Positions 34,617-42,894 are shown, counted from the stretch's first letter. The stretch is 64,000 nt of DNA from Lawsonibacter sp. (GCA_050943895.1 JBMNQA010000008.1:26351-90350), one strand, 5' to 3'. The notes: generated by a model from the sequence alone, not told the origin. Program-made: numbers and translations.

Positions 34617-34628
34617 TGAATAAAAAGC

Positions 34629-34659
34629 GAGGGCCACTGCGAACGTTGCAGTGGCCCTC
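34629..34659. terminator. Hairpin between the convergent M23 and flavodoxin-like genes
   Basis: GAGGGCCACTGC-N7-GCAGTGGCCCTC, with an A run on the left (U tract for the minus strand). Confidence 0.75.
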
Positions 34660-34667
34660 AGTTCTTG

Positions 34668-35735
34668 TTATTTGGTGTTTGCCCCCATGACCTGAGCGAT
34701 GTGAGAGGCAAAGACGTCCAGACGTTCTTGAATGCCTGGAAGTGCCAGAGCCTGGCCGGGGTCATTGGCCGTTTCCAGCAAAGCAAAATGGCTGGGAAGG
34801 TGAAAGGATTTATTCATGTTGAGTGCAGCGATTAGCTGACGGGCTACAATATCGCCACCCGAGTAGCCTGAGACCACAATGGCAAAAAGCGCCTTATCAT
34901 AAAAACGGGTTTGCCGAAACAAGGCGGTGAGCCGGTTGATACAGGCAGTCAGGTTCGCGGAAAGTGCATCGTTGTAATTGGGACACAGCATCACCAGGGC
35001 ATCAGCGGAGCGAACGGCAGGATAGACCTCTTCTTGCATTACGCCGCCATAGAAACAACCTCCCCGCTCTCCAAAATGGAGGCACATGGTGTAAGGGCAG
35101 CCGGAGCAGTCGGACAGTGTGCCGTTGCGCAGGCCAATTTCTTGACAGGTTACGCCATTTCCCAGCCTCTGGCGCACCTGATCCCACAGGGCCATGGTGT
35201 TGGAGGTGTGGTGGCTGGAGGCATGAAGAACCACTAACTTTGGCTGTGCCCGGCGGGGAAAGGGAGGCCCCTCCAACCGCACGATTAGATCCTGGGCCGC
35301 CCGGCGGTATGCTTCAATGCAGGAGATGCCCTGAACCTGAGCTTGAATTCGAAAGGTAGAAAGATCTCCGGTGCCTTCTACCAGAGGCCGTCCCAAGAAG
35401 GTGCAGCCGGCCAAATTTGCGGCCAACACCAATTCGGTGGCCGCTGACTTGGTGTATAGAGGAGAGACTCCGTCCACCAGTAGGCCGGCGGTGCAGCCAT
35501 CTAATAGTCCCGGTTCTCGGCGCAGGCGGGAAAGCATCCGAGTGTATTCCAGATTAACCCCTGTTTCACCCAAAGAAAGGACAAAGAGAAGCGTATTCCC
35601 TGTTAGATTGGTCAAATCTTGAACACGAGCCACTGTACGAAAGTTACGACCTGCCAGCGCGCAACGTAACACATCGTCCACCCGAGCCTGCGCCACCTCT
35701 GGCTCCGGTGTGGGACGAATCAATACCAGTGCCAT
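34668..35735 (-). CDS. Tandem flavodoxin-like / iron-sulfur flavoprotein-like protein
   Basis: C-terminal domain has VVLHASSHHTSNT, CxxCx4Cx8C (CSGCPYTMC...C), ADALVMLCPNY and VVSGYSGGD. The N-terminal half resembles a degenerate flavodoxin fold. Confidence 0.75.
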   Translation of the reverse strand: MALVLIRPTPEPEVAQARVDDVLRCALAGRNFRTVARVQDLTNLTGNTLLFVLSLGETGVNLEYTRMLSRLRREPGLLDGCTAGLLVDGVSPLYTKSAATELVLAANLAGCTFLGRPLVEGTGDLSTFRIQAQVQGISCIEAYRRAAQDLIVRLEGPPFPRRAQPKLVVLHASSHHTSNTMALWDQVRQRLGNGVTCQEIGLRNGTLSDCSGCPYTMCLHFGERGGCFYGGVMQEEVYPAVRSADALVMLCPNYNDALSANLTACINRLTALFRQTRFYDKALFAIVVSGYSGGDIVARQLIAALNMNKSFHLPSHFALLETANDPGQALALPGIQERLDVFASHIAQVMGANTK

Positions 35736-35804: not shown

Positions 35805-37046
35805 TCACAAAATTTCTTTTAAATGTTCGGCTGCTTCCTGAATGTGAGCGAAAAGAGGATCGGGAATTTTGGGAAGCAGTTCCGTTTGGATACCTGCTGG
35901 GGTGAAGCGGTTTTTGACCCCCATATATACGCCATCTAAAAATACAGAGCCACAGTGCCACTCCCCACGTAAAGTGAGCAGGAGGGACAGGGCGCCGGAA
36001 GACAGGGCTGGGGCTACATAGGGCTTAAATCCCAGTTCTCGCATTTGCAAGTTGGCGGTGACCGTACGTTGTGTCAGTTCCTGGGAGAGTGTCTCATCAT
36101 AATGTTCAATGGAGTTAGCAATAAACAGACCTGTGCCGTGGGGCCCAAAGGAGCGCCCTTCCGTCAAGAAAGAGGCCAGGCGTGCGTCCCGCTTAGCATA
36201 ATAGGCAGCTCGGGCATTCATTACTCCAAGGCCAAATCCCTGCACTTGCTCCGGGAGAAGCCCTTTGCCGTCCCATACTCCTGCGTCATCCAGGTTGCTC
36301 TCCAAATAGGCGGTTTTGGCCAGTGGATCCACTGGATCAGATACGGCTGCCCACAATCCCTGGAACTTAGATTGGCGGGCTAGGCGTGCGTAGTGCTTGA
36401 CAATGGCAGCATTTTGTTCAAACTGAGCCATACGCACATCTTTGATTGCCGACCCCACAGGAGGGATTCCTTTGGAGGCCACAAAGACGAATAGGTCACA
36501 GTCGAAGAGCTTCTCCGGTGGGATGACCTCTACCTCAGGAAAGGCGTCGTAGGCCCATGGCAAGGAAACCTGTCCCATCTCAAATTCCCATCGAGCGGTA
36601 ATCTGTTGACTGAGATCGCAGATGCCAATGGAAGAAATGACGTCTCCCCCCAGCAGTTTGAGTCCAGTGAGGAGGGTAGAGCCCACATCCCCAATGGCTA
36701 AAAGGTTCACTCGTTTTTTTCTGCTGTGGGCAGCAGGACGGGTAAGCCGTGCCTCCCAGCCGGGACGCCCTATATTGACTGCGGTTACACGGCCCTGGGC
36801 GATGGCCTGGTCCAGATAGAGATCCATAGACACTGCCGGCAGACGGGAGGCATCTAGAACTTCCAGCCCGTGAGGGCAAACAAGTTGACCCGGGTGTTCC
36901 ACGCGGAAGGAACCTCGGCCCAGCACAGGATCTCCGTCCACCAGAAAGAAGACTGGAACGTTGGGGACAGGCTGGGCGGGGGTAAGGTCCGGGCGTACTT
37001 GGAAAGAGGCGACAAAAGCCCCGGAGTGAGTATAGTAAAAAATCAT
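35805..37046 (-). CDS. LDH/MDH-fold NAD(P)-binding protein with N-terminal extension and non-canonical active site
   Basis: LLAIGDVG...GICD, DLFVFVAS, R...FEQNAAIVK, VSDPVD, GLGVMNARA, GPHG. Confidence 0.75.
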   Translation of the reverse strand: MIFYYTHSGAFVASFQVRPDLTPAQPVPNVPVFFLVDGDPVLGRGSFRVEHPGQLVCPHGLEVLDASRLPAVSMDLYLDQAIAQGRVTAVNIGRPGWEARLTRPAAHSRKKRVNLLAIGDVGSTLLTGLKLLGGDVISSIGICDLSQQITARWEFEMGQVSLPWAYDAFPEVEVIPPEKLFDCDLFVFVASKGIPPVGSAIKDVRMAQFEQNAAIVKHYARLARQSKFQGLWAAVSDPVDPLAKTAYLESNLDDAGVWDGKGLLPEQVQGFGLGVMNARAAYYAKRDARLASFLTEGRSFGPHGTGLFIANSIEHYDETLSQELTQRTVTANLQMRELGFKPYVAPALSSGALSLLLTLRGEWHCGSVFLDGVYMGVKNRFTPAGIQTELLPKIPDPLFAHIQEAAEHLKEIL

Positions 37047-37088: not shown

Positions 37089-40000
37089 TTAAATGTGAGA
37101 AATAGTAGTATGCTGAGTGCGCAGGAGTTGTTCCAAGTCATTTTCCAGGTATACCGAGGCAGATAGATTTGGGTCATAGTGTAGACAAGTGCCCTTATCT
37201 GGACACAGTGGTAGAATGACTGCCTCTGGCAGTCGACTGAGGGTCAGGTTGCGACCGTAGAGGACACGGTATTCCTGTTCCAGGGTGGAGATGACATCCA
37301 GTGCACATTCCAAACAAGTCTCCGAAAGACGGAAAACCGCCTCCTGTCCACACTCTGCTTGGTAAGATGGGAGAGCATAGGGCAGGATATGGTTGATGCC
37401 AGGAAGCAATCCGGGTACCGGCGAAGCAGAGCGGCGTACGGTGTTGCCACCAATGAAGGGATAAAGGGTGGACTCCACAAACCACTGCCGCAGCCGGGGC
37501 AGAAAATAGACGCTGTCCACCGGCCGATCCCAGGAGGCCATTAAATCTTTCCCGTAACCGGAGAGGACACCTACCAACACCATTCGAATGGGGACCTGTT
37601 CTTGCCGCAGAATTGGGTCCAGTGCTCGCATGCGAAAGCCAGGGTGCATCAAATCATCCACTAGGATTACCGGCCGATTGAACGATTTGATGGTGCGAAT
37701 TTGGCAAGGGATAGGGGAATAGTAGGGGAAAGCCTCGATTGTGCTATCCATTAAATTAGGAGAATAGACTTTGTCGGTATGAATAGTTTTGGTCACTGTA
37801 TTTGGAACAATTTTCCCGCGGAGTAGTTTGCCAAAGGGAACACACATATTCTCCCCCAGCACCCGGGGGACGGTGGGGACAGCAGGAACGTTATTATAAG
37901 CAGTGATTTTCTCTAACAACCGATGGTGGATAATATCAGCGGATAGGGTGAGAACTAAGGAACCAGGGTAGAGGCCGGTTAGCGCCTGTTGTAGGCGTTG
38001 ATGGCTCCGACGAATGGCCGAGAGAACGCGGGGATTTCGGGAGAGAGGTTCCTGAATTGCGGTCTCCAGATTCTGAATGAGTACCGTGGGCGCATGCATA
38101 TCTACTTCACGAATGGGGCGGTCCCCCTCATAAGATAGAAATCCCATCCGAGCCAAGTTGTTCTCTAATTCGGACGATAGATGCCCGTCATGAGGAGCAA
38201 AGACAGCATAGACGTGCTCCTCTTCCAGTGCGCGGGAGAGAAGTTCACTCAGCAGCAGTTGACCGTAGTCTTTGTAGCGGTCGGAGGTGTCCGCGTACAG
38301 GGCAGTAATCAGAACTGTTTTTCCGGCTGCCCGTAGCCTTACCCGATTTGCCAGCTGAGGGTCGCCAAGAGCGGAAAACAGGTCTGATGTGGTAAGATAC
38401 CGGTAACTGGCAAAGCCCAGTAACTGGGACTGCGCCCCGGTCCGACGCAGCAATAGCACACGGTCGCTGCATCGGGAAATAGAATTGCGCACAATGTCTC
38501 GCTCTGGCAGCCCTGCCGTTAAATCCGCCAACAAGAGAGGGGCGGGTGCATCGTCCCACTGGAATTCCAGATCTCCGGCATAGAGCAGAGGTTTCTCCTG
38601 GGCGTCTCGAAGATAGAGTCCGTTTTGGTAAATAAAGTCCTGAATTACAGGGTCGATAAAGTTAGAAATATCCCGGTTTAGGTCCACATTTTCTCGGATG
38701 CGAGAAGAACTGATGTCTTCCAGGTGGGGAGGAAGTTGCAGACGAATCACATCTCCGGTGATGGGTAGGGTTTTCGGCAATTCCGCTTCTCCCACCCGGC
38801 GGAAAATGACGTGGTTCATCTGGTGGACAGAGAAAGGCTGAGGTGGAGCTTTGTAAGAAGAGGCATTGGCGACTACATCGCTGCCCGCCACCAGGTAAAC
38901 TTTTTGTCCAGGAAACAGATTCAAAAGGCGGTGCAGGTCCTGGGGGTTGGCAATGTTGACGGGAATGTCGTCGGGGAACAGGTGAACGTGAAAATCACCA
39001 GCCACCGACAAGTTGACAATCTGGCGCCGGATTAGGTGGGGTTGAGCCTTTTTGGACCAGGAGAACTCATCCACGGCCAGATATACCTCAAATCCTAAGT
39101 CACGGATGGCATGGACAATGCCTTTGTGAGAGAGGGTGAACGGGTCAAAAGTGCCTGGGAAAAAGGCGATCTTTCGGGGGCGTTCGAAAGTAAAGGGACC
39201 GTGGTCCAGTCGCCGCAGGGCAATAAAACGGTTGATGTGAGCCAGTGCTGCTGCTCGGTAGAAGAACGTTAGATGATCCTGACCGGGGGATTCCTGGATC
39301 AGAAAAAGTAGTTTGCGGTAACACAGGGCGAACAGTCGCCCCTTCTCTTCCATATCCAAGACGGAGGATTCAAAGAGCATTTTGCCGATAACCAGCAAAG
39401 CCTCTTGGCGCACTGCTTCTCGGTAGTGAGCCAGCCCCTGAAGCAGCAACCCCAGGAGTTCTTGTCGTCGATTTTCGTAAGCTGTATCCGACTCGGCAAA
39501 TCGGTCTCGGTAAGCTGGATAATGCTGTAAAAGTACCCCAATGGTGTTTAACGCTCCAGACACTGCCGAATCATTGGGAGAGCCTAGTAGCGATTTGAGC
39601 CAGAGCACCTGTTCATCCAGTTCGCTGGGGTGGAGGTAAAGCGCGGCCTCTCCTAGGTATTGGGGAATGTATTTGGAGATCTCGTACTGCCCCATCTCCA
39701 GACCTTTTCCTAATTCCACCACCACTTCATTGCGTTGATCCCTGCGCAGGATGGACAGCGTGCGAACCAAAGCGGAGCCGGCGGAGTGTCGTACCACGAC
39801 CCGCTCAGACACTTTAACTAAGTTGGAAAAATGGGTGGCAATATGAAGAATATGAGTTTTGACACCATGTTCTACTTGGTCCCGGAGCAATTCGACTCCT
39901 GCTACCTTCACAATCCAGGGAGTGGCATTTTTTAGGTTATCCAGAAACACCTCGCTGGTGATATCCAACTGATAGAGCATTTGCTCCATGGCATCTACGT

Positions 40001-41903
40001 TCTGCCCGGCGCGGCGCAATATTTTGCATTTGAGGAAGATGGTGGTCAGTTGGCTGTCTTGAACTTGTTGGGTAACCTCAACAATACGCTGCATGTGGGG
40101 GTGAGAACGGGGCAGAGAGCGCTCTGCTTCCCGGAAAAATTCCAATGCCGCAGTGATAAGACGCAGATCTCCAGAGAGAGCGAAATGGGTGGCAAAGGCA
40201 ATGAGCTTTTCCCGTACTTCCTCCCCATAATACTGGGGTGGCAGGTAACGAATGGCATCCAAAAGTGTGAAAGCGGTGTCGGGGGAAATCTGTTGGGGAT
40301 TCTCATAGTAATTTAAAAAGGCGCCCAAAAAACGGGGAATATCTCCTGGACGGGCGTGGGAGAGCATGGAATCTACCACTAACTTCAGGGTGTAACCAAT
40401 GTGGGAACGCTGTTGAGGGGTGGTCTTGTGGTCGGGAAAGATAATCATGTCTAGATACTGTCCCCACAGAGTAAAAGGAACTTCCTCTGCTGGATCGTTT
40501 TGCGCGTCTGCTGGGACCTCCTTACGGTACACCAGGTGGAAGCGGGCAATAAGCTGTCCAATCAGTCCTGCTGCCTGACGGCGGATATCACCTTCACGGT
40601 GGATCAGAAGTTCGTGAAAAAACGAGAGAGCTTGCGTCTTTTGCCGCACGGAGAGATAGGTAGAATACTCCCCAAATATATTGAGATAAGCGCGCAGCTG
40701 CTGCCAACTTTTGGCGGAACGGGCGGCTTCTATGATGTTGCCGAAACGCTGTTCGTTGGACAACATATGCATAAGACGCAGGTTGTGGTCCACGGAAAGT
40801 AAAATTAGACTGTCCAGAGTCTCTTCGGGGTTCATCAAAGCCGGGTCTTTTACCGGAGTTGGAGGTTGAGGCTGACCCACTAGGTCCACATCTACCCCAA
40901 GACGGCGCATGTAGTCCTCGAAATCGTGTAGTTTTCCATAGACGAACTCATATCGCCGGCGCTTTTTTCTATCCACATTGTCGAGTTTAGACAATATGAC
41001 TTGGAAAGATTGATCCAGGGGATAGAGGACGGTAATTTCATGCCCGTCTGCGTCCCGACTCTGTTTGGAACGAAAGTCGGCGTAAATGAGCAACAAAGAC
41101 TCCACCGAAAGGGATTCTAGTTCCAGATCCCAAGTGGAGTGGTTGGATGCAATGTGGCTAATGCCGTCCATCTTCCGTTCCAGCAACCACTGGTCGGTAT
41201 AGTAGTAATGGAGATAAGGAACTCGTTCTCCTGGACGGCAGCCAAATTTTCCTACATCATGGGCGGCAGCTGCCCCAGAAATAAGGGACAAGTCCACCTC
41301 CACACCAGCATCCACCAATCCCCGAGCTGCGGTCATAGCAATGAAATGAACTCCGGCAATATGGCTCAAAGTACGAAAGGGAGTGACTTCCAGTCCCAGG
41401 CGCATCAACTCATAAAGAAATTCGTCTCGCCAGGCGGTTAAAAAACGGTGGTACTCTTTGCCATGGTCGCACCCTTCATATTCTTCTCGGGATAGGAGTT
41501 GAAAATCCAGCATGGGATCAAAGGGAAGGGCGGCGCGCTCTTGGTCCAACAAAAGCTGAAGGACGGTCAAATAGACGATTGCTCCCTCTGCATAAGGCGC
41601 ACAATCTGTGGCAAAGCCGCCTCCGGGAAACATCCGATGGCAGATATAGCGATAGCAAAAGGGGAGCCAGCCGTCTTCCGGGGCATTGGGAGACAGAGGG
41701 GAGAGCAGAGGAGTACATACCTGAAGAACCTTTGTACAGGTCAATCGCTCTCGAACAGGAAGCAAAGTAGCAAGTCCCTCTTGCCAGGATTGATTTCGCA
41801 GCAATGCGGCCAATCCCTTTCGGCTGGATAAGGAGGGGAGATGGCGAAGAGACAGAGCCTCTGCCAGGGTGTGGTTAAACTGTCGAATCAGCTTATCATG
41901 CAT
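37089..41903 (-). CDS. ~1600-aa multidomain protein: HD hydrolase + helical region + HIGH-type nucleotidyltransferase + GNAT-like + PRTase-like
   Basis: HD: HIAGVH..AAHDVGK..H..NH..YAD. NTase: FFPGTFDPFTLSH, LVAGSD, ISSSRIRE. GNAT-like: LLGFASY...YGQLLLSELL...LARMGF. PRPP-loop-like VILVDDLMHPG. Confidence 0.8.
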   Translation of the reverse strand: MHDKLIRQFNHTLAEALSLRHLPSLSSRKGLAALLRNQSWQEGLATLLPVRERLTCTKVLQVCTPLLSPLSPNAPEDGWLPFCYRYICHRMFPGGGFATDCAPYAEGAIVYLTVLQLLLDQERAALPFDPMLDFQLLSREEYEGCDHGKEYHRFLTAWRDEFLYELMRLGLEVTPFRTLSHIAGVHFIAMTAARGLVDAGVEVDLSLISGAAAAHDVGKFGCRPGERVPYLHYYYTDQWLLERKMDGISHIASNHSTWDLELESLSVESLLLIYADFRSKQSRDADGHEITVLYPLDQSFQVILSKLDNVDRKKRRRYEFVYGKLHDFEDYMRRLGVDVDLVGQPQPPTPVKDPALMNPEETLDSLILLSVDHNLRLMHMLSNEQRFGNIIEAARSAKSWQQLRAYLNIFGEYSTYLSVRQKTQALSFFHELLIHREGDIRRQAAGLIGQLIARFHLVYRKEVPADAQNDPAEEVPFTLWGQYLDMIIFPDHKTTPQQRSHIGYTLKLVVDSMLSHARPGDIPRFLGAFLNYYENPQQISPDTAFTLLDAIRYLPPQYYGEEVREKLIAFATHFALSGDLRLITAALEFFREAERSLPRSHPHMQRIVEVTQQVQDSQLTTIFLKCKILRRAGQNVDAMEQMLYQLDITSEVFLDNLKNATPWIVKVAGVELLRDQVEHGVKTHILHIATHFSNLVKVSERVVVRHSAGSALVRTLSILRRDQRNEVVVELGKGLEMGQYEISKYIPQYLGEAALYLHPSELDEQVLWLKSLLGSPNDSAVSGALNTIGVLLQHYPAYRDRFAESDTAYENRRQELLGLLLQGLAHYREAVRQEALLVIGKMLFESSVLDMEEKGRLFALCYRKLLFLIQESPGQDHLTFFYRAAALAHINRFIALRRLDHGPFTFERPRKIAFFPGTFDPFTLSHKGIVHAIRDLGFEVYLAVDEFSWSKKAQPHLIRRQIVNLSVAGDFHVHLFPDDIPVNIANPQDLHRLLNLFPGQKVYLVAGSDVVANASSYKAPPQPFSVHQMNHVIFRRVGEAELPKTLPITGDVIRLQLPPHLEDISSSRIRENVDLNRDISNFIDPVIQDFIYQNGLYLRDAQEKPLLYAGDLEFQWDDAPAPLLLADLTAGLPERDIVRNSISRCSDRVLLLRRTGAQSQLLGFASYRYLTTSDLFSALGDPQLANRVRLRAAGKTVLITALYADTSDRYKDYGQLLLSELLSRALEEEHVYAVFAPHDGHLSSELENNLARMGFLSYEGDRPIREVDMHAPTVLIQNLETAIQEPLSRNPRVLSAIRRSHQRLQQALTGLYPGSLVLTLSADIIHHRLLEKITAYNNVPAVPTVPRVLGENMCVPFGKLLRGKIVPNTVTKTIHTDKVYSPNLMDSTIEAFPYYSPIPCQIRTIKSFNRPVILVDDLMHPGFRMRALDPILRQEQVPIRMVLVGVLSGYGKDLMASWDRPVDSVYFLPRLRQWFVESTLYPFIGGNTVRRSASPVPGLLPGINHILPYALPSYQAECGQEAVFRLSETCLECALDVISTLEQEYRVLYGRNLTLSRLPEAVILPLCPDKGTCLHYDPNLSASVYLENDLEQLLRTQHTTISHI

Positions 41904-42024
41904 AGCAGTACCGCCTTTCGCTCGCATAAAAGGTGAAGGGGCGCTGGGTAAGTTGTAATTTCTTGTCTCAACTATATCACATTTTCCGCCACCTGGAAAG
42001 ATAAGTGAAAAAATACGGAGCCCG

Positions 42025-42894
42025 TTAGGACTCCGTGCGCTGCTGCTGGCGACGATGATACACGTGGGAGATCACCGCCCCCAGCAGCAGAATATTTCCA
42101 CAAAAATAAAGCCACACCAAAAGCACAATCAATGAGGCGAGAGATCCGTATACCAAAGCATACCGGGAAGACATGTCAATAAACCAGGAAAACATCACGG
42201 AGCAACCCACCATAGCTGCAGCAGTGAGTAGGGCGGACAGGCGCAGTGTCCCGCGGGGAAGTCCGTTGCGCGGCATGCCCACCCGATAAACTGCCAGAAC
42301 CAGGAGCAGAACAAAGCAGAATAGGAGCAGATACCGAAGCCATAGCCACAACCGGGCCAAACTGCCCAGTGGAAACAGGGCACGGATTGCTTGAGGGAGG
42401 TTTTGCTCCAGAACGCTGAAAAACCAATCTCCAGTAAAAATAACTACTACCGAGAGATATACCGTCACCAAAAACAGGGCGGAGAGAATGACACTGGACA
42501 CAGTGCGCCGAAATCGGCGTGTCTGTTTGACCTGAAAAAGTACGTCCATGGTAAAAAATAGGGTCCGAAGTCCTGCAGATGCAGACACTAAAATGGTAAA
42601 TAAGCTAGCCCATAACAAGGCTGGGGACTGGATCCCAGCAATGTACATTAGGTAATCTTCTAATACGGACAGCGCCTCGGTGGGGAGAACTTGGTGTAGA
42701 GTCAATAAGGCTTGTTCCAAATCCATGTGAAACAAGCCGATAAAATAGTTGACACAGACTAAGAGGGGAAACAAAGTCAAGACCAAAAAGTAGGAAAGAG
42801 CAGCTGCCGAACGTGCTACTCCTACTCGGTGGTAAGTTTCTGCTGCGTCCAGGGCAAAGGAAACAATAGGAATCCGGCAAAGGCGCTCCAGCAC
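42025..42894 (-). CDS. YihY/BrkB family membrane protein
   Basis: AAALSYFLVLTLFPLL; C-terminal YALVYGSLASLIVLLVWLYF. Confidence 0.9.
   Translation of the reverse strand: MLERLCRIPIVSFALDAAETYHRVGVARSAAALSYFLVLTLFPLLVCVNYFIGLFHMDLEQALLTLHQVLPTEALSVLEDYLMYIAGIQSPALLWASLFTILVSASAGLRTLFFTMDVLFQVKQTRRFRRTVSSVILSALFLVTVYLSVVVIFTGDWFFSVLEQNLPQAIRALFPLGSLARLWLWLRYLLLFCFVLLLVLAVYRVGMPRNGLPRGTLRLSALLTAAAMVGCSVMFSWFIDMSSRYALVYGSLASLIVLLVWLYFCGNILLLGAVISHVYHRRQQQRTES

Follow-up and report, generated by a model that had tools for sequence, protein, structure and literature searches.

The lactate and malate dehydrogenases (LDHs and MDHs) form a superfamily that serves as the textbook case of a conserved catalytic set, Arg109, Asp168, Arg171 and His195, and their first shell further includes Asn140, Leu112 and residues 236–250 (PMC4109310). 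Loop insertions redefine specificity in the apicomplexan LDHs, which are derived from MDHs and set the precedent of a five-residue insertion in the specificity loop that changes the substrate, and in the HicDH clade, where a residue other than Gln or Arg at position 102 and an insertion between positions 102 and 109 go with an altered, bulkier 2-hydroxyacid specificity (PMC4109310). Here we analyse an LDH-like protein whose active site departs from this pattern. Its gene (35805..37046, minus strand; open reading frame of 413 codons plus stop) lies in a 64,000-nucleotide stretch of Lawsonibacter sp. DNA (GCA_050943895.1, JBMNQA010000008.1:26351-90350), called the window below, and is the middle one of a three-gene operon that also encodes a giant protein upstream and a flavoprotein of the FMN_red family downstream. 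The LDH-like protein represents a widely conserved, unstudied family of gut Clostridia. We interpret it, with moderate confidence, as an oxidoreductase of the 2-hydroxy/2-oxo-acid type that depends on nicotinamide adenine dinucleotide (NAD(H)), acts on a substrate other than lactate and works together with the flavoprotein and the giant protein.

Fold and active site of the LDH-like protein

Searches with the single sequence were too weak to establish homology to LDH, and profiles were therefore needed. The protein on its own found no match in Pfam, its best LDH in the PDB had an E-value of 0.066, and it scored 16.4 bits (E 0.0045) against the NCBIfam L-LDH model TIGR01771, for which the curated cut-off is 303.55 bits. 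A family profile built from a 56-sequence alignment matched solved L-LDHs in the PDB with an E-value of 7e-13 and had the HicDH-clade structure 1hyh among its matches (E 1.2e-8). When the family was compared with 27 canonical clostridial LDHs in hhalign, the two aligned with a probability of 99.7% (E 2.8e-24), family residues 106–413 corresponding to LDH residues 1–310. Ldh_1_N was matched by 51 of the 56 family members (best E 5.6e-12) and Ldh_1_C by none. L-LDH models were the top-scoring family for 48 members (best E 7e-16), MDH models matched only 33 (best E 1.9e-11), and the SbnB-family model was matched weakly by 13 (best E 4e-6).

The structural comparison points the same way. The AlphaFold2 model of the 413-residue protein has a predicted local distance difference test (pLDDT) score of 96.2 and a predicted template modelling (pTM) score of 0.93, and a Foldseek search with it gave an E-value of 9e-18. 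The core of the model, residues 108–413 (35808..36725, minus strand), superimposes in VIA-align on the Bacillus cereus L-LDH 4lmr with a Z-score of 28.9 and a root mean square deviation (r.m.s.d.) of 2.6 Å over 275 residues, and on L-LDHs and MDHs taken together with Z-scores of 27–29 and r.m.s.d. values of 2.6–3.0 Å over 275–284 residues. By its predicted structure and its profile alignments, the protein is a member of the LDH/MDH superfamily. In a tree restricted to the family and clostridial LDHs, the family is set apart from the latter by a branch of 3.8 substitutions per site.

The motifs AIGDVG, PPVGSAIKDVR, SDPVD, VMNAR and GPHG, all quoted in an initial annotation made from the sequence alone, are present at coordinates that we verified, and the conservation of their residues was counted over 109 family representatives, clustered at 50% identity. 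The dinucleotide-binding motif AIGDVG (A117–G122; 36681..36698, minus strand), located by alignment, has the family consensus G-L-G-D-V-G. Position 117 is Gly in 70 representatives and Ala in 37, and G119, D120 and G122 are kept in 107, 102 and 106 of 109, respectively. The GxGxxG motif had been described as altered, and this is true of the copy in the window, which begins with Ala, while in the family Gly is the commoner residue. D144 (36615..36617, minus strand) is an acidic residue at the end of strand beta-2, aligned with the Asp of the LDH 'ID' pair at the Asp53 position, and is Asp in 95 of 106 representatives. Together with the conserved G119 and G122, it predicts a Rossmann site of the NAD rather than the NADP type. 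The proposal that the cofactor may be something other than NAD is therefore not borne out, as GxGxxG and D144 are conserved as they are in the NAD-dependent members of the superfamily.

The remaining positions were assigned from HMMER and hhalign alignments. In the active-site loop, PPVGSAIKDVR (36432..36464, minus strand), R205 is the equivalent of Arg109 and is kept in 107 of 109 representatives. This loop carries a 5-residue insertion with a conserved P195 (105/108); D203, also in the loop, is kept in 107 of 108. The equivalent of LDH position 102 is S199, which is variable across the family, with no conserved Arg or Gln there, and Q208 is an invariant Gln at position 112, where LDH and MDH have the first-shell Leu112. 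The segment SDPVD (36327..36341, minus strand) aligns with the LDH motif sNPVD, and its D237, Asp in 107 of 109 representatives, replaces Asn140 as the initial annotation had proposed. Around VMNAR (36210..36224, minus strand), both programs agree in placing the family segment G270-F-G-L-G-V-M-N-A-R279 on the LDH segment G-S-G-T-x-L-D-x-x-R. R279 (107/109) is thus the equivalent of Arg171, and M276 (Met in 106/109) stands in place of the catalytic Asp168. Here the earlier reading was right about the retained Arg, but its change of the catalytic Asp to Asn came from a misalignment by one residue: N277 occupies a variable position (Asn in 37 representatives, Tyr in 29, His in 18 and Ala in 8). 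In GPHG (36135..36146, minus strand), H303 is the equivalent of the catalytic His195 and is kept, again as first proposed, in 103 of 107 representatives.

A further change lies in the wall of the pocket. Relative to LDH, helix alpha2G is shortened by about 7 residues in the hhalign alignment, where the gap falls before a conserved pair, K341-P342 (36021..36026, minus strand; K341 in 96 of 101 representatives, P342 in 97 of 102), in the loop that precedes helix alpha3G. The position of the gap makes this pair the presumed counterpart, in exact residue register, of LDH residues 245/246 (Thr246). In the AlphaFold2 model, a helix at residues 331–337 is followed by a loop and a second helix at residues 344–359.

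Set against the bacterial NAD-dependent L-LDHs (4lmr, 3pqd, 1ldn; TIGR01771), the protein has the same two-domain fold (Z about 29, r.m.s.d. 2.6–2.9 Å), and it has in common with them GxGxxG, the Asp53-type acid and the equivalents of Arg109, Arg171 and His195. However, the identity is about 20%, Asp168 is exchanged for Met and Asn140 for Asp, the loop has gained 5 residues and alpha2G lost about 7, Pro with a conserved Lys before it takes position 246, and there is an extra N-terminal domain of 107 residues. Furthermore, the gene does not stand free like that of L-LDH but sits in an obligatory three-gene module. A canonical L-LDH would reach the TIGR01771 score and have the full catalytic set with Asp168 and a Gln102 in a loop of standard length, none of which was found, and with regard to MDH there is no conserved equivalent of Arg102 and the cut-offs of the MDH models are not reached. 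The non-Gln/Arg residue at position 102 and the insertion between positions 102 and 109 are shared with the HicDH clade (PDB 1hyh). This clade keeps Asp168 (PMC4109310), whereas the LDH-like family is without it, and HicDH has neither the N-terminal domain nor the giant and flavoprotein partners. The apicomplexan LDHs differ in origin and in their full catalytic set including Asp168 and Asn140; Pro at position 246 is found in the Plasmodium LDHs too (PMC4109310). Hence, the family belongs to a known superfamily by fold, but by residues and scores it is neither an LDH nor an MDH, and by residues it falls outside the HicDH clade.

The initial annotation had counted about 110 extra N-terminal residues, and residues 1–107 (36726..37046, minus strand) indeed lie outside every LDH alignment. 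Modelled alone, they form a small alpha/beta unit (pLDDT 88.8) with no recognisable fold. A search of the isolated domain, independent of Foldseek, against 48,161 PDB chains returned no match: the top structures, PEPCK, HPr kinase and STAS, had Z-scores of at most 3.3, too low to be meaningful. A protein-atlas search likewise offered no clue. Among 18 orthologues the domain is 11–31% identical, with Y5, S14 and N91 invariant. Three of the 21 complete orthologous loci lack it, the gene there beginning directly behind the giant gene, and a hidden Markov model of the domain found no other copy in the whole genome or in these short-form loci. Given its weak conservation and the fact that some lineages do without it, the domain would be an accessory, non-catalytic part of the protein, a docking or regulatory add-on.

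Gene linkage and distribution of the family

In a sample of 301 Clostridia-class genomes, 300 of which were scored, the family profile was found in 21, with one copy each, and the giant protein occurred in exactly the same 21. Each of the 21 loci has the three genes on one strand, the giant gene first, the LDH-like gene second and the flavoprotein gene directly after it, with a 4-nucleotide overlap between the last two in 12 loci. No other gene cluster was found as a neighbour in more than about 5 of the 21 loci. The arrangement was also checked by tblastn in 80 loci from named genomes, 75 of which had a visible upstream side: the giant gene was upstream in 72 of these 75, and the flavoprotein gene was downstream in 75 of the 80. 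In the three loci without an upstream giant gene, it is adjacent but inverted in one and on another contig in two. These counts uphold the tie to the adjacent giant protein that had been suspected from the window.

Two Oscillibacter and Dysosmobacter metagenome-assembled genomes (MAGs; loci L110 and L117) have the LDH-like/flavoprotein pair apart from the giant gene, on different contigs, which makes this pair the tighter unit. In a Logan assembly, the cluster P0274 encodes an 837-residue in-frame fusion of full-length LDH-like and full-length flavoprotein parts, joined by a short, acidic, Ala-rich linker. A second apparent fusion, P0275, was set aside as a probable frameshift: its LDH homology ends at residue 297, and roughly the next 100 residues are rich in Ala, Gly and Arg.

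In two loci (L002:6419-11737 and L003:6243-11446), inserted genes separate the giant gene from the LDH-like gene. They are three split glutamate-synthase genes of the archaeal type, whose products are GATase_2, Glu_synthase with a 4Fe-4S site, and GXGXG, and an ammonium transporter gene that lies on the opposite strand. The LDH-like/flavoprotein pair is intact in both loci despite the insertion.

The branch is large. The LDH-like protein has more than 6,100 homologues, and when the species representatives of GTDB were scanned for its motif, the family turned up in at least 589 species. These belong to the Oscillospiraceae, the Lachnospiraceae and related groups, and many are abundant in the gut. 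Among the named carriers are Lawsonibacter, Pseudoflavonifractor phocaeensis, Flintibacter muris, Colidextribacter, Oscillibacter, Dysosmobacter, Yanshouia hominis and Lachnospiraceae. Orthologues 55–70% identical were also seen in four MAGs labelled Leptolinea, Chloroflexi or Bacteroidaceae (L084, L085, L087 and L123); because of their high identity to the Oscillospiraceae copies, an error in binning or labelling appears more probable than transfer. A literature search found no publication on the family or on the three-gene module, and NCBI names some of the orthologues 'lactate dehydrogenase'.

With Asp168 fixed as Met, Asn140 fixed as Asp and the rest of the catalytic set kept, the family amounts to a natural experiment on how a His–Asp dyad can be rebuilt. 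The strict three-gene linkage is in turn a handle on the function of an unstudied enzyme of about 1,600 residues, and the existence of cultured carriers (Flintibacter muris DSM 110149, Pseudoflavonifractor phocaeensis and Oscillibacter sp. PC13) makes the matter testable at the bench.

Proposed function and its alternatives

The explanation that we favour starts from the residues that are kept. R205, R279 and H303 would bind and activate a 2-oxo- or 2-hydroxy-carboxylate. Since these Arg and His residues and the NAD determinants are fixed across a family of more than 50% divergence, the protein would be an active NAD(H) enzyme working on a carboxylate that bears oxygen, or possibly nitrogen, at C2, and would represent a deep branch of the L-LDH/MDH superfamily. 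The acid near the catalytic His may have been relocated from position 168, now Met, to position 140, where D237 is found: M276 and D237 are fixed together, which suggests that the acidic partner was moved rather than lost. Judging from the alignments, D237 may contact H303 or R205. The pocket, too, is predicted from the alignments to have changed in size, and it may take an acid that is larger and more polar than pyruvate or oxaloacetate, because the loop is longer, the alpha2G wall is shortened and polar residues, Q208 and K341, are new.

The LDH-like enzyme would be the redox step of an obligatory module composed of the giant HD/NadD-like nucleotide enzyme, the LDH-like enzyme itself and an iron-sulfur flavoprotein. 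The LDH-like enzyme and the flavoprotein probably assemble into a complex in which the flavoprotein would pass electrons to or from the NAD(H) of the former. The obligatory pairing with a protein carrying flavin mononucleotide (FMN) and an iron-sulfur cluster, the translational coupling and one fusion argue for such a complex and electron exchange, the P0274 fusion lending the link weak support. A pathway shared with the giant HD/NadD-like enzyme is very likely because the two strictly co-occur. One may go further and picture the three proteins as a single machine, in which the giant makes or modifies an unusual dinucleotide or a nucleotide-linked acid, the LDH-like protein oxidises or reduces this compound by way of the Asp at position 140, and the flavoprotein provides a link to low-potential electron carriers. 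We offer this extension tentatively and find it doubtful as a whole; if true, it would mean a previously unrecognised cofactor, metabolite-repair or signalling pathway in hundreds of species of gut Clostridia.

Several observations weigh against an active oxidoreductase in such a module. The copy in the window has A117 in place of the first Gly of GxGxxG, and the LDH-like protein of this genome is below the level of Pfam detection. In Bacillus stearothermophilus LDH mutants, the loss of Asp168 reportedly lowers catalysis. The P0274 fusion is a single cluster on a 3.1-kb contig. Finally, neither a riboswitch nor a conserved extra neighbour names the metabolite, in the window or in the other loci searched.

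Some of these facts would also fit a non-catalytic NAD(H)-binding subunit, in which the LDH fold serves as a redox sensor or a scaffold that regulates the giant and the flavoprotein or docks on them. The His–Asp dyad is broken by M276 at position 168, the extra N-terminal domain is of a docking type, the partners are obligatory, and the GxGxxG motif of this copy is weakened by A117. However, R205, R279 and H303 are each kept in about 96–98% of representatives that are less than 50% identical, which is hard to explain without substrate chemistry, and the equally fixed D237 suggests a compensating acid and not decay. A subunit of this kind is therefore unlikely in our view. The nucleotide enzyme next door invites another thought, namely that the NadD-like adenylyltransferase of the giant makes an unusual dinucleotide, an NAD analogue or a damaged NAD(H), which the LDH-like protein uses or processes. 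The NadD-like domain is not the housekeeping NadD, D120 of GxGDVG is nearly invariant and specific to the family, and the downstream flavoprotein is of the NAD(P)H:FMN reductase family, all of which would suit this idea. Yet the adenosine-side determinants (G119, G122 and D144) are of the ordinary NAD type, and the equivalents of Arg171 and Arg109 point to a carboxylate substrate, beyond nucleotide binding, so that we hold an unusual dinucleotide to be quite unlikely.

The substitution at position 140 would have a different meaning in an imine or amine reductase of the opine type, acting on 2-imino or 2-amino acids, where the Asp that replaces Asn140 would bind a protonated C2 nitrogen. D237 occupies position 140, which is listed as first shell (PMC4109310); the LDH residue there makes contact with the C2 oxygen of the substrate. 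The ammonium transporter and split glutamate-synthase genes inside the module of two genomes, as well as the weak SbnB-family matches of 13 of the 56 members, are consistent with nitrogen chemistry, but these genes are present in 2 of 21 loci only and partly on the other strand, and the SbnB matches may reflect the shared Rossmann region only. Moreover, we know of no LDH/MDH-fold enzyme with imine or amine chemistry, and we consider this assignment improbable. Least likely of all is an ordinary second lactate or malate dehydrogenase, even though the NCBI names of some orthologues and the best scores of 48 of the 56 members against L-LDH models would suggest one. The scores are far under the curated cut-offs (16 against 303 bits for the protein in the window; best E in the family 7e-16), Met and Asp stand in for Asp168 and Asn140, the loop and the pocket wall have changed in length, 3.8 substitutions per site separate the family from clostridial LDHs, a canonical LDH is encoded on contig 12 of the same genome, and the linkage of the gene to two unrelated ones is strict. 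An ordinary dehydrogenase is thus highly improbable, in agreement with the initial annotation, and the NCBI name is probably misleading.

Partner proteins and operon layout

The giant protein (37089..41927, minus strand; 1612 residues), analysed with Pfam and NCBIfam, consists of an HD motif, helical repeats, a NadD-like nucleotidyltransferase at residues 917–1112 and two unassigned C-terminal domains. Pfam searches with its segments gave a weak HD match (E 0.037) and only hints of HEAT repeats, and profile searches of the C-terminal domains against the PDB returned nothing significant. The first ATG of the reading frame, at 41927, has no ribosome-binding site, whereas the ATG at 41903 is preceded by AAAGGCGG. 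The true start is therefore probably at 41903, which gives a protein of 1604 rather than 1612 residues. The segment 'ILVDDLMHPG' of the giant protein may be a motif of the phosphoribosyltransferase type.

The flavoprotein (34668..35735, minus strand; 355 residues) has two domains. Its C-terminal half matches Pfam FMN_red with an E-value of 1e-18, and its N-terminal domain of about 160 residues has no Pfam match. C210, C213, C218 and C227 are invariant in 21 orthologues and form the pattern CxxCx4Cx8C; a fifth Cys is found in CPNYND. The FMN_red domain and the four invariant Cys residues are like those of iron-sulfur flavoproteins of the FMN_red family, but the CxxCx4Cx8C spacing and the extra N-terminal domain are unlike them. 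A literature search found no FMN_red or iron-sulfur flavoprotein paired with an LDH-fold enzyme.

In the window, the giant gene is followed after 33 nucleotides by the LDH-like gene and this after 69 nucleotides by the flavoprotein gene. The LDH-like reading frame starts with the ATG at 37046, 6 nucleotides upstream of which lies AGGTG, resembling a ribosome-binding site. A sequence scan located a promoter-like site before the giant gene (41971..41999, minus strand), TTTCCA-17-TATAGT with an upstream TG (extended -10), which is the probable start of the operon. The scan also picked up, at 42015-42036, a terminator-like hairpin that belongs to BrkB, the gene before the operon. The operon ends at a strong, bidirectional terminator hairpin (34628..34660, minus strand) with a stem of 13–14 bp, 9 G-C pairs and a following run of T. 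The flanking genes, BrkB/YihY with its own terminator, gpr, an M23/SpoIIQ-like gene and an M16 peptidase gene, are unrelated to the operon.

Upstream of the module, no riboswitch or RNA leader was found in the window at E-values up to 0.1, and no riboswitch was found at the gathering threshold in 8 other loci. Matches to T-box, cyclic di-AMP and 6S RNAs were seen in these 8 loci, those to cyclic di-AMP and 6S on the strand opposite to the module. None of the three module proteins had a match among the PADLOC defence systems.

Elsewhere in the genome there are a canonical LDH (contig 12; Ldh_1_N, 148 bits) and a canonical NadD (contig C7:67472-68068; 145 bits), and hence the LDH-like gene and the NadD-like domain of the giant protein are not the housekeeping copies. 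The canonical NadD sits in an open frame of 406 residues, which leaves room for a fusion of the NadD-YqeK type. If such a fusion is encoded on C7, the genome would hold both a small and a giant HD-plus-NadD protein.

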